Positions 60,414-62,829 of a stretch of DNA of 64,000 nt are shown here, piece by piece (the first letter of the stretch is position 1; every line of letters begins with the position of its first letter). Both the position numbers and the translations under genes were made by a program. The stretch comes from a virus. The DNA lies in IMG/VR virus record IMGVR_UViG_3300020576_007358, one strand, 5' to 3'. The notes under the pieces are model-generated. The model ran no database searches. It saw only the letters and a program-made list of their open reading frames with translations, and was not told the DNA's origin.

Positions 60414-61739
60414 ATGAAAAGACTCCTGATAGAGACGCAGTTGTCAAATTATGATGTGAATGGGAAATTTATCCTAGAATGTGATTCAGGGTGGAATATG
60501 GTCATGGGTCGCGTAAGGGTGATGCTTCAGCTGAACCCAGAGCTGCACATCACAGTGATGATCCCGCAGCTTGGTGATGACGGCAGAAAGAGACAAGTTG
60601 TAACTGATCCCTGGGATGTGTACCCAGATCTTTGGGATCGTTACGGTGCAGATGGTGATAATCGTCTAGCGTTCTTTGAGCACAACATCATCGGAAATGC
60701 TCTTGTGACTCGTTATGATTTTGACTGGACGGGTCTAGCTGTCGGTCTAAATCTCGGGATGCAGAAGTTGAGCCGCGCTCCCAAGTGGGACGCAGTTTAC
60801 ATCAACGATCCAATGCATCTAAGAGCTTTCAAGGCGATGTTCCACGTTGTTGGTGGATACCAACCCAAGTTTTTCGTGCATTCCCACTTCGTGGATGTGC
60901 CATCATGTCCAAAGTTTCCAGCCGAAGCGTCGCTGTGGCTCGGTCAATGCGAAGCAGCGATGAAAGCCGATTGGAACTTCTGGCAGTGCGAATCTGCGTT
61001 GGCAGAGTTTGAAGTTGAAGCCAGGAAGCTTTACAGAGATGAAGTTGTTCAAAAGATCCTCGAAAAGTCTTCACCGTGGGATGACGGATACTCTCGAGAA
61101 GAGATCACATCACCAGTCAACTTCGACAATCTTAGGTTTGATGTCAACCTGGTCGAGAAGCTGCAATCAGCCGGCAAGAAGATCATCTTTGTCCCGAACC
61201 GTATCGGTGAAGCAGGGGTGTCTAGCGACTACACGAACTGCGGCAAGTTCATGTTTGACATCTTGCCAAAGCTTCACAATCGTCGCCAAGACTTCGTTGT
61301 CATTGCTGGAAATCCCAGCCAGAAGATCTCTAACTCTAGCTTGCAAGATCGCTGCGGCCGTCACGGCTACGTGTCTCTTGTCTCTGGCCCGCTTAACAGA
61401 GATGAATTCAAGTACATAGCCTCCAGAGCTGAGATATCTGTTGGGTTGTACGATCAGGACACGTACGGTGGAACGGCTGCTAGAGAATGCACAGAATTGG
61501 GATGTGTTCCATTGACATTGAACTGTAATGAATATGCAAGATTGCTTAAATTGTCATCATTTCCAATTTATTGCAATCCTGATTTTTCTGACATTGTTGA
61601 TAAAGCTAGCGATCTGATCGATTATGTTGGCACTGATGATTGTAAAAAGTCACATGAAAGACTGAAAACAGTCGTTCAACAAAGATGTTCATACGAAGAA
61701 ACAACGTTGAGTTCGATGAAACGTATGGATCTATTGTAA
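60414..61739 (+). CDS. Glycosyltransferase (GT-B / GT1-like).
   Basis: GGTAARECTELGCVPL resembles the E.G.P GT1 motif. The AT-rich 3' end is duplicated downstream of the adjacent HE. Confidence 0.5.
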   Translation: MKRLLIETQLSNYDVNGKFILECDSGWNMVMGRVRVMLQLNPELHITVMIPQLGDDGRKRQVVTDPWDVYPDLWDRYGADGDNRLAFFEHNIIGNALVTRYDFDWTGLAVGLNLGMQKLSRAPKWDAVYINDPMHLRAFKAMFHVVGGYQPKFFVHSHFVDVPSCPKFPAEASLWLGQCEAAMKADWNFWQCESALAEFEVEARKLYRDEVVQKILEKSSPWDDGYSREEITSPVNFDNLRFDVNLVEKLQSAGKKIIFVPNRIGEAGVSSDYTNCGKFMFDILPKLHNRRQDFVVIAGNPSQKISNSSLQDRCGRHGYVSLVSGPLNRDEFKYIASRAEISVGLYDQDTYGGTAARECTELGCVPLTLNCNEYARLLKLSSFPIYCNPDFSDIVDKASDLIDYVGTDDCKKSHERLKTVVQQRCSYEETTLSSMKRMDLL

Positions 61740-61766
61740 AAGTATGTGTGCCACTATAGTTAGATC

Positions 61767-62555
61767 ATGGGATTCTTTGTATACACTATTACAAATACGA
61801 TTACGTCAGAAGTTTATGTCGGAAAAACTAATGATCTAGCTTGTCGCTGGCGAATACATCGTTATTTTGGTTCTACGGGTCAATTTAGGGGTAGAAGTCA
61901 TTTGTATGCGAACATGCGAACTTATGGTCTAGACGCGTTTGAATTTAAGTGTGTTTATCACACTAGTAATGAAGAAGATTCATACGCACACGAAATTGAA
62001 ACCATCTCGTCTCTTAAGAAAAGTGGCGTAATGTTGCTAAATCTTACTTCTGGTGGCGAGGGCGTGCGTGGTATTACAGCACACCAGAAAAAATTGATAA
62101 GTGATCGATTTAAAGCATTGTGGAAGGATCCTAGTTTTAGACTTAAGATGAAAAGCAAAGTAAGAAAATTGCGTGGTCATCAAACAGAAGAAACCAAACA
62201 GCGTATTTCTTCATCACTTAAGAAAAATTGGGCTAGTGATGAAGAAAAAGCAAAACAACGAATCGAGAACTTGCGAGAAATCTTCAGAAGTGATGAATTT
62301 AGATTGAAAGCTTCCATAAAGCAAAAAGAAGTTCAACAAAGAGTTGAAGTTAAACAAAAAATAGCCGCAGCTAGAATCAAAAGAAATGATCATCTACGAG
62401 CGACAGTAAATGATCTTAGAAGTGATTATCAAACTGGATTGTATACTCAAAAAGATCTTGCCAAGAAATACGATCTTCGTATTAGCCAAGTTAAGGGAAT
62501 AATTGCGGGAAATATATACCGGTATCTCATTGACCAATTATTTCGAATATTCTAA
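61767..62555 (+). CDS. GIY-YIG homing endonuclease with NUMOD3 repeats.
   Basis: VYTITN...YVGKT, R..H, LNLTSGGEG. Confidence 0.55.
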   Translation: MGFFVYTITNTITSEVYVGKTNDLACRWRIHRYFGSTGQFRGRSHLYANMRTYGLDAFEFKCVYHTSNEEDSYAHEIETISSLKKSGVMLLNLTSGGEGVRGITAHQKKLISDRFKALWKDPSFRLKMKSKVRKLRGHQTEETKQRISSSLKKNWASDEEKAKQRIENLREIFRSDEFRLKASIKQKEVQQRVEVKQKIAAARIKRNDHLRATVNDLRSDYQTGLYTQKDLAKKYDLRISQVKGIIAGNIYRYLIDQLFRIF

Positions 62556-62589
62556 GCTGGCTCGAGATGCAGGAGGGCACCCTTTCATG

Positions 62590-62784
62590 GGCTCGCCAGA
62601 CTTTTCTGATGCACCAGACGTGCTGAGCAAGTTGCTCGATGAGTTCAGCGAGCTGAGAGCTCACACCGTCGACATGAATGATCTTCGTGAACGTCTCCGT
62701 GATGCTGTTAGAGCTCGGTGCTCTTACGAGGTGACGACGCTTTCAGCAATGCGGAAGATGAACTTGCTCTGCAACGTCGACTAA
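62590..62784 (+). pseudogene. Diverged duplicate of the glycosyltransferase 3' end (GSPDFSD...RCSYEVTTLSAMRKMNLL vs CNPDFSD...RCSYEETTLSSMKRMDLL).
   Basis: Amino-acid similarity with nucleotide divergence. Within ORF 62503..62784. Confidence 0.4.
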
Positions 62785-62829
62785 CACGCTGTACATTAGC
62801 CCTGTAGGTGGGTATAGTCTTACCTAGAC

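Follow-up and report, generated by a model that had tools for sequence, protein, structure and literature searches.

The window analysed here, a stretch of 64,000 nucleotides (nt) of viral DNA (IMG/VR record IMGVR_UViG_3300020576_007358), contains a gene for a glycosyltransferase (GT; 60414..61739, plus strand, 441 amino acids, GT-B fold) followed by a free-standing gene for a GIY-YIG homing endonuclease (HE; 61767..62555, plus strand, 262 amino acids, 36% guanine plus cytosine (GC)). Behind the HE gene lies a second, diverged copy of the GT 3' end (62545..62784, plus strand, 79 codons plus stop), which we call the orphan, and then a gene for an NAD-dependent sugar epimerase (62830..63798, plus strand; Pfam PF01370, E 7e-53), which directly follows the GT gene in genomes that lack the HE. 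DNA alignment, GC content and the presence of invariant residues indicate that the GT gene is chimeric, with a body of resident type and a last stretch of 78 codons (61506..61739, plus strand, stop codon included, 33.8% GC) of donor type. We consider it highly probable that this donor-type end and the HE gene form a mobile cassette that replaces the end of the GT gene from within and has spread by homing.

The GT protein has no match in sequence searches of Pfam, PHROG or PDB. The region 60414..63800 has no match among 50,697 GenBank phage records (blastn, distant mode), and the GT has no tblastn match in GenBank phages, so there is no annotated relative to rely on. An AlphaFold2 (AF2) model built with 30 homologues reaches a predicted local distance difference test score (pLDDT) of 90.4, and a Foldseek search with it finds GT-B enzymes of GT4/GT5/GT20 type (probability 1.0, template modelling (TM) score ~0.6). 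Because this confident model matches GT-B glycosyltransferases, the label is supported at the level of the fold. The C-terminal helices that have been replaced score ~88-97 pLDDT, and the chimeric enzyme is predicted with high confidence to fold through them.

A sequence-only reading of the window had proposed that the GT C-terminus recurs downstream of the HE gene, and pairwise alignment confirms it: 33 of 78 residues are identical (BLASTP, E 5e-16) between the C-terminus and a mechanical reading frame of 93 codons (62503..62784, plus strand) that holds the orphan. The extent of the two copies had been drawn too short, since homology begins ~45 nt further upstream, at NCNEY / NYFEY (61521/61530 in the attached copy, 62536/62545 in the orphan); the segment of the attached end homologous to the orphan is 61530..61736. 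The same reading was right in calling the attached copy AT-rich and the orphan GC-rich, with 33.8% against 52.5% GC; the GT body has 48.8%, the HE gene 36.1% and the epimerase gene 48.6%. The attached copy is in frame with the GT body and stops at the position homologous to the resident stop. Both copies contain the family-invariant residues E373, Y374, D390, F391, L417, C425, Y427, E428, T430, T431, M435 and M438. Between them the proportion of synonymous sites that differ (pS) is 0.96 and the non-synonymous divergence (dN) is 0.62. With synonymous sites saturated, Ka/Ks between the copies is not computable, and we compared instead the orphan with HE-free alleles and the cassette with its flanks. 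The saturation itself indicates that the copies are anciently diverged homologues and do not stem from a recent duplication in place.

The HE matches Pfam PF01541 (E 4.3e-7, above the gathering score), PHROG 314 'homing endonuclease' (E 4.8e-26), PHROG 7168 and PHROG 5123 'homing endonuclease with GIY-YIG motif', and the motif residues VYT...YVGKT...R...E...N can be read in its sequence. The ratio of non-synonymous to synonymous differences per site (pN/pS) between cassette variants is low (0.15-0.21), so that the HE is under purifying selection; homologues are rare, with only 7 detectable in 5.8 billion proteins, a search that returned ~400 homologues of the GT. The gene is an open reading frame (ORF) of its own, beginning 27 nt past the GT stop. 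The spacer between the substitute end and the HE start (61740..61766, plus strand) contains CTATAGTTAGAT, a sequence that three lineages, those of the window and of contigs L005 and L007, have kept upstream of the HE. Just 5' of the start these share CTATAGTTA(G/A)(A/T), at 61754..61765 in the window, ~5833..5844 in L005 and ~471..482 in L007, a possible expression signal of the cassette judging from its position and conservation. The motif is not enriched across the window (8 matches against 5 expected), and a scan for promoters and terminators found nothing exceeding the shuffled expectation. The three lineages that share it differ widely in GC content.

GIY-YIG endonucleases are often intron-encoded, and the orphan of the window is an intact frame of 79 codons; a spliced element, either a group I intron with its HE or an element removed at the protein level, would allow the functional GT to use the GC-rich end. 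We regard this as extremely unlikely. No Rfam family, whether group I intron or other RNA, matches 61300..62900 at E<=1 and no Hint/intein domain was found with Pfam, the attached copy is in frame with its invariant residues kept and its stop at the homologous position, and the orphans of several otherwise intact genomes contain a stop or a frameshift. The HE lies in neither an intron nor an intein, and the features that define a group I intron are not seen.

Relatives without the HE reveal which of the two ends is resident. The GT protein P0007, encoded on contigs L001 (JGI) and L002 (SRA run), is 97% identical to the window GT over amino acids 1-364, and at the C-terminus it shares 95% with the orphan as against 43% with the attached, AT-rich end. 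This fall from 97% to 43% past codon 364 is, in the alignment, a sharp mosaic boundary. Both contigs have one GT end and no HE, and the epimerase gene begins 46 nt after the GT gene. By blastn, 60436..61544 of the window corresponds to 5029..6137 of L001, and 62545..64000 to 6123..7578. At base level the window is of resident type through GGATGT (61505), of donor type from 61506, and of resident type again from GAATAT (62545); a three-way DNA alignment of the window, the HE-free L001/L002 and the HE-bearing L003 likewise places the first donor-specific base at 61506. The insert is thus 61506..62544, 1039 nt in place of 24 resident nt. This cassette of ~1.04 kb, made up of the donor GT 3' end and the HE gene, lies within the coding sequence of the GT, just 5' of GAATATTCTAG and just before the conserved codons GAA TAT TCT AG (E-Y-S), and its right junction, at 62544/62545, lies directly 5' of GAATATTCTAAG. 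The final three sense codons of the HE gene (the first straddles the junction) and its stop are resident GT sequence, and the start of the orphan overlaps these codons and the stop in another frame.

Single-ended alleles without the HE were found on L001/L002 (P0007), on L024-L026 (GT protein P0021, of a second lineage described below) and on L009-L013, five more distant viral contigs; none of these HE-free relatives has both copies. Since L001/L002 have one orphan-like end and then the epimerase gene, the cassette has been inserted and the resident end displaced. The HE-free GT site of L001 and L024 is the sequence around GAATATTCTAGACTGGCTCGAGATGC, centred on ...TGTAATGAATATTCTAGACTGGCTCGAGATGC..., where ATGAATATTCTAGNCTGGCNCGAGATGC is common to both HE-free lineages. 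Both cassette-borne GT ends depart from the resident sequence right after GAATAT. A tandem duplication of the GT 3' end in place, followed by divergence and a later landing of the HE between the copies, would explain why homologous copies stand in tandem with orientation and frame alike. Nevertheless the copies differ at a pS of 0.96, yet the orphan and the functional end of the sister allele have a synonymous divergence (dS) of 0.23, HE-free relatives have a single copy, and the attached copy matches the HE in composition and in its history of transfer, so that we give this account almost no credence.

The divergence of the orphan from the P0007 end consists of 11 synonymous and 4 non-synonymous differences (omega 0.095). 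So low a ratio indicates that the orphan diverged mostly while it was functional and is consistent with recent capture. Its frame is intact in the window, L003, L016 and L017. In L008 it has a premature stop (TCA>TAA), in L018-L022 an 8-nt frameshifting insertion near the end, and in L018 also many replacements and the loss of the invariant Tyr (CSYE>CSCE). From the stop, the frameshift and the lost Tyr in these relatives it follows that the orphan is a pseudogene fragment. Together with its 95% identity to the HE-free P0007, this decay upholds the earlier proposal that the HE brought a donor's gene end with it and left the resident end as a pseudogene; every testable part of the core interpretation offered by the sequence-only reading has found support. 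One could suppose instead that selection maintains the orphan for a function it still has, for example as a small protein or regulatory element, as its intact frames in four genomes and its mostly synonymous differences from P0007 would suggest. The low omega is expected under recent capture, however, the frame has no start codon except a mechanical TTG within the HE gene, and the premature stop in L008, the frameshift in five contigs and the altered CSYE in L018 are hard to reconcile with a function; we find this very improbable.

Ten further contigs bear the HE (L003, L008 and L016-L023), and its presence is polymorphic at one site, being absent in L001/L002 and present in the window and these ten. 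Among L018, L019 and L021, 984 nt of HE gene and attached GT end were compared without a single difference, while the pS between L018 and either of the other two is 0.26-0.29 for the orphan and 0.38-0.40 for the epimerase gene. The window and L003 present the converse, with a pS of 0.20 in the HE and only 0.02-0.03 in orphan and epimerase. The history of the cassette is therefore decoupled from that of its flanks in both directions, and, as the same cassette stands beside differing orphans and epimerases, the orphan travels with the flank, that is with the recipient background, and not with the cassette. On the evidence of these comparisons the cassette is mobile. Two C-terminal variants, TTLSSMKRMDLL and TTKDAMIRMDLI, are found in recombinant combinations (L018). 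The left edge of the donor-type sequence lies at ~61505 in the window, L008 and L019-22 and at ~61445, ~60 nt further upstream and with a 6-nt indel, in L003 and L014-18; the right junction is identical in all HE-bearing contigs. A variable left and a fixed right boundary are the pattern expected of break repair with variable resection on the collinear side. The sequence-only reading had spoken of marker co-conversion. This stands for the left side, where a donor tract begins at ~61445 or ~61505 and leaves no duplicate, but fails for the right side, where the resident end persists as the orphan; true co-conversion would replace that end, and its persistence thus points to insertion with a substitute end.

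The only other relatives of the HE (53% amino acid identity) are likewise found downstream of GT genes. L005 is a phage contig of 39% GC whose GT is 64% identical to that of the window. Its GT 3' end has 30% GC and its HE gene 33% GC, and they are followed by an orphan of 76 codons with 43% GC (6605..6835). The HE-free counterpart, P0021, is 98.6% identical to the L005 GT in the N-terminal part and 89% identical to the L005 orphan at the C-terminus, and the best match of the L005 attached end, its own gene P0017 aside, is 46.5% (P0025). On L024-L026 the next gene directly follows the P0021 GT, and the flanks are 98% identical to those of L005. The L005 insert measures 1006 nt (5603..6608) and ends on the right, as in the window, immediately 5' of GAATATTCTAG. 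In the L005 HE gene (5849..6621) the GIY-YIG N-terminus is intact in frame and ATA stands at the position of the window's ATG start; the gene caller begins the gene 52 codons further downstream. From the altered codon, this loss of the start may be an early step in the decay of the endonuclease.

These two lineages bear on whether a single accidental, illegitimate event, inherited vertically ever since, could account for the locus: an intergenic HE would have been co-converted and a faulty repair would have left an orphan without a role. One-sided microhomology repair is documented for intron homing in T4 (PMC2988022), a related HE without an orphan exists in L007, and the HE-bearing genomes of the window lineage are closely related (96-99% identity). 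We nevertheless consider this improbable, because the same junction 5' of GAATATTCTAG is found in the second lineage with that lineage's own resident-type orphan, because one cassette stands beside orphans and epimerases that differ at 26-40% of synonymous sites, and because diverged cassette variants share nearly identical right flanks (window and L003). The anatomy of the locus, the insertion polymorphism, the use of the same site in two lineages, the same cassettes in diverged backgrounds, the pattern of boundaries and the decay of the orphan, on which the homing cassette rests, are all direct observations.

Several observations weigh against such a cassette or limit it. In L007 (55% GC) a related HE lies between the GT and epimerase genes without any orphan, so that the orphan is not obligatory. 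L014 (5332..6111) and L015 (1481..2416) have, after the same AT-rich GT end of the cassette type, an HE-like gene of the DUF7487 family that overlaps the GT stop, so that the substitute end is not strictly tied to the GIY-YIG HE; comparison of these genes suggests turnover of endonucleases at one site (both contigs end before any orphan position). No lineage was found from which the substitute end could derive; among the 120 homologues listed, the nearest C-terminus outside a cassette is only 45% identical. The pN/pS of the orphan (0.1-0.3) is only modestly higher than that of the GT body, on small counts. The HE-bearing genomes of the window lineage could partly stem from one insertion, with later recombination varying the left edge. 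Finally, the cleavage of the GT gene by the HE is itself our inference from sequence, and the cut could lie elsewhere; Seg enzymes can cleave hundreds of base pairs away from their insertion site.

As for composition, the GT 3' end and HE of L007 have a lower GC content than their flanks, and related cassettes in three lineages, with flanks of ~40%, 49% and 60% GC, lie ~7-15 GC points below their own hosts. With such a deficit in three lineages, AT-richness need not signal an AT-rich donor genome.

In the mechanism that we propose, the cassette would have two parts, a substitute that covers the final ~70-78 GT codons and brings its own stop, and the free-standing GIY-YIG HE gene. It provides an in-frame ending, so that the GT remains intact with neither an intron nor an intein, and the resident ending would be moved downstream of the HE, out of any gene. 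In a mixed infection the HE would cut an HE-free GT allele near the site, both the nuclease activity and the position of the cut being presumed. The left break end would pair with the GT body of the donor, and variable resection would give the variable left donor tract; the right break end, the recipient's own 3' end, would pair with the orphan of the donor, which would thereby act as the homology arm on the right of the cassette; and repair synthesis would copy the cassette in between. Because repair would proceed via the recipient's own 3' end, each new host would keep an orphan of its own type. From the sequence shared by the HE-free lineages we infer that the target of the HE includes the stretch at ATGAATATTCTAGNCTGGCNCGAGATGC. 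The substitute end, which diverges right after GAATAT, probably destroys this target and would make HE-bearing genomes immune. The cassette probably originated in a one-sided, microhomology-mediated repair by which an intergenic HE, together with the 3' end of its neighbour, was first placed into a foreign GT gene.

The window belongs to an uncultivated group of large phages with contigs up to 340 kb, and its 64 kb contain at least eight HE-like ORFs, at 33350, 35335 (Endo VII type), 43462 (HNH), 48966 (GIY-YIG+NUMOD3), 49861, 51637, 59458 and 61767. The one at 59458..60375 (minus strand), assigned to DUF7487 / PHROG 3339 by Pfam and PHROG, is a second, independent element upstream of the GT gene. 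It is present in the window, L003 and L004 and absent from L001, L008 and L016, and it is linked to a distinct or converted haplotype of the first ~29 GT codons (60414..~60500). With two endonuclease elements, one at each end, the GT gene is mosaic at both ends.

The sequence-only reading had seen similar footprints at an Hsp20 gene and at dnaE. The first is real, but the gene whose 3' end is duplicated is a MazG-like/dUTPase_2 gene that lies upstream of Hsp20. This gene (34178..34525) is complete, with 115 amino acids and 33.6% GC, and a mechanical HE-like ORF (TnsA-like/DUF7487, 33350..34525) runs in frame into it. Its last 32 codons (34427..34522) recur at 34516..34611 with 16 of 32 residues identical and 41.7% GC, in the 5' extension of the mechanical 'Hsp20' ORF; the real start of Hsp20 is at ~34690. 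A query with the Hsp20 protein found no related loci, and the MazG-like gene was used as query instead. In 35 viral relatives it is present in a single copy with no adjacent HE, most of them with a detectable Hsp20 ~100 nt downstream.

The footprint at dnaE is also real, but here the duplicated piece is the 5' end and not the 3' end, the mirror image of the GT case: 49772..49822 and 50676..50723 are identical in 15 of 16 amino acids. The orphan 5' end (49772..49822, MTPKRFVGLHNHTCFS*) precedes an HE-like ORF of PD-(D/E)xK type (49861..50622, 253 amino acids) that lies between the two copies, and the substitute 5' end is an ORF of 34 codons with its ATG at 50619 (MKINDSNNRKEVSLENSVRTPKRFVGLHNHTGFS). 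Some relatives have the HE of dnaE without an orphan, and others a substitute 5' end and a gap with no detectable HE.

The gap in question interrupts the PHP domain. The ORF ends with TTT TCG, then TAG GGG ATT TAA follows, and the reading resumes at TCA CCC TTT GAC (SPFDG). In the window the gap, TAGGGGATTTAA, occupies 50721..50732, between a take-off codon TCG (50718..50720) and a landing codon TCA (50733..50735), and leads from HNHTGFS to SPFDG; the junction peptide under a ribosomal hop would be ...HNHTGFSPFDGLGYPNEHFDFCR. Relatives without interruption read ...HNHTGFSPFDG.... By pattern scans of viral and metagenomic contigs, which gave the relatives L050-L070 (the L059 contig ends within the gap), we found at least 16 further distinct variants with a fully readable gap at exactly the same codon, 17 with the window. 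The gap measures 2-13 nt and always begins with a stop codon, and in 8 of the 17 its length is not divisible by three. The take-off codon is a Ser TCN throughout, and the landing codon is TCN in 15 variants and GCG or ACG in the other two, both after take-off from TCG. Past the landing site the sequence reads (P/V/A/S)(F/Y)DG and the ORF stays open for up to 1205 codons; ahead of the gap the amino acids are conserved and their codons vary synonymously. An N-terminal extension of ~10-15 residues, absent from the uninterrupted relatives, is found in nearly all variants that have the gap; a homologue of the 253-amino-acid HE is detectable upstream in 6 of the 17. No Rfam family matches the gap region, and dnaE is not mentioned in the literature on ribosomal bypassing that we examined.

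On these alignments the gap is a candidate for a programmed ribosomal hop linked to an HE. Compared with T4 mobA/gene 60 the cassette is similar and the gaps are much shorter. Alternatively, the N-terminal 30-34 amino acids might be made separately or be dispensable. That HEs routinely colonise genes in this lineage by way of substitute ends (GT 3', MazG-like 3', dnaE 5'), and that dnaE is a second family of HE-linked hopping after T4 mobA/gene 60, is a broader proposition to which we give slightly less than an even chance. If the hop is true, it would offer many natural short-range bypassing variants for mechanistic study.

The dnaE gene of the window is also split, into an ORF with the N-extein and the N-terminal part of an intein (50826..51620) and one with the C-terminal part of the intein and the C-extein (52547..56059). 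An HE-like gene of 319 amino acids (51637..52596) lies between the intein halves, the 'fractured gene' arrangement of Dassa et al. 2009 (PMC2677866). In L001 the gene is unsplit and encodes 1280 amino acids, and DnaE is at most 30% identical to that of any cultured phage.

Among known systems the nearest to the GT cassette are the gene hybrids with mobile ORFs (mORFs) of fungal mitochondria, described for atp6, atp9, cox2 and nad3 of Glomus sp. (Beaudet et al. 2013, PMC3630166) and, as that paper cites it, for atp6 of Allomyces macrogynus (Paquin et al. 1994). The order of parts is identical: gene core, in-frame foreign C-terminus, endonuclease ORF, native C-terminus. In both systems the closest relative has an end nearly identical to the native one, and the inserted end differs strongly from it. 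In Glomus atp6 the native end is 91% identical to the sister species and the inserted end 63.5% at the nucleotide level (PMC3630166), and our two lineages show the same relation, with 95% and 89% for the orphan and 43% and 46.5% for the inserted end. One of the mitochondrial cases, atp9, has a GIY-YIG enzyme (PMC3630166). The GT case differs in that it concerns a double-stranded DNA phage and a gene that is not a core gene, in that the phage HE is a separate ORF past the stop and the mitochondrial ORF is fused in phase, and in that the phage data reveal the same cassettes in genomes that have diverged, together with a variable left tract, neither of which could be shown in the mitochondrial papers. 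The GT cassette is thus the known gene-end-replacement trick of fungal mitochondria, here in a phage.

The Seg and Mob enzymes of T4-like phages ('intronless homing', marker exclusion) resemble it as free-standing GIY-YIG genes between phage genes, present or absent among close relatives, and in spreading by double-strand break repair that converts flanking markers over tracts whose length varies with resection (review PMC2988022). They are intergenic, however, and replace the flanks, and the GT cassette lies inside a coding sequence and brings a substitute end; the review mentions neither a duplication nor a pseudogene. T4 mobA in gene 39/60 (Bonocora et al. 2011; bioRxiv 10.1101/2022.08.31.505936) shares with it an HE inside an ORF with no intron or intein, and extra coding sequence that preserves the function of the host gene, alters the HE target and confers self-immunity. 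There the gene is split into two polypeptides with new tails and a 50-nt bypass, whereas the GT is unsplit and its end is replaced; the dnaE element of the window is much nearer to mobA than the GT cassette is. Illegitimate one-sided intron homing in T4, in the summary of Parker et al. 1999 given in PMC2988022, has in common with the GT locus a one-sided homology and a junction at microhomology, and by analogy an event of that type is a plausible origin of the right junction at GAATAT. As summarised there, it is an experimental intron system, and the GT cassette is a stable natural element with homology on both sides. In the full-text literature that we searched we found no phage precedent for a gene-end duplication linked to an HE, which is absence of evidence only.

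The GT cassette indicates that an HE of a phage can live inside a gene by means of a spare gene end, a third solution besides self-splicing introns and inteins. This solution had hitherto been documented mainly in fungal mitochondria, and for phages there is now sequence evidence at the level of populations. It accounts for a class of short 'orphan' ORFs that have been puzzling in phage genomes, and for gene ends with discordant GC content, and it is a warning to annotators and phylogeneticists that gene termini beside an HE may differ in history from the body of the gene. The two pairs of HE-free and HE-bearing alleles, in turn, provide a ready target site for a new GIY-YIG specificity.

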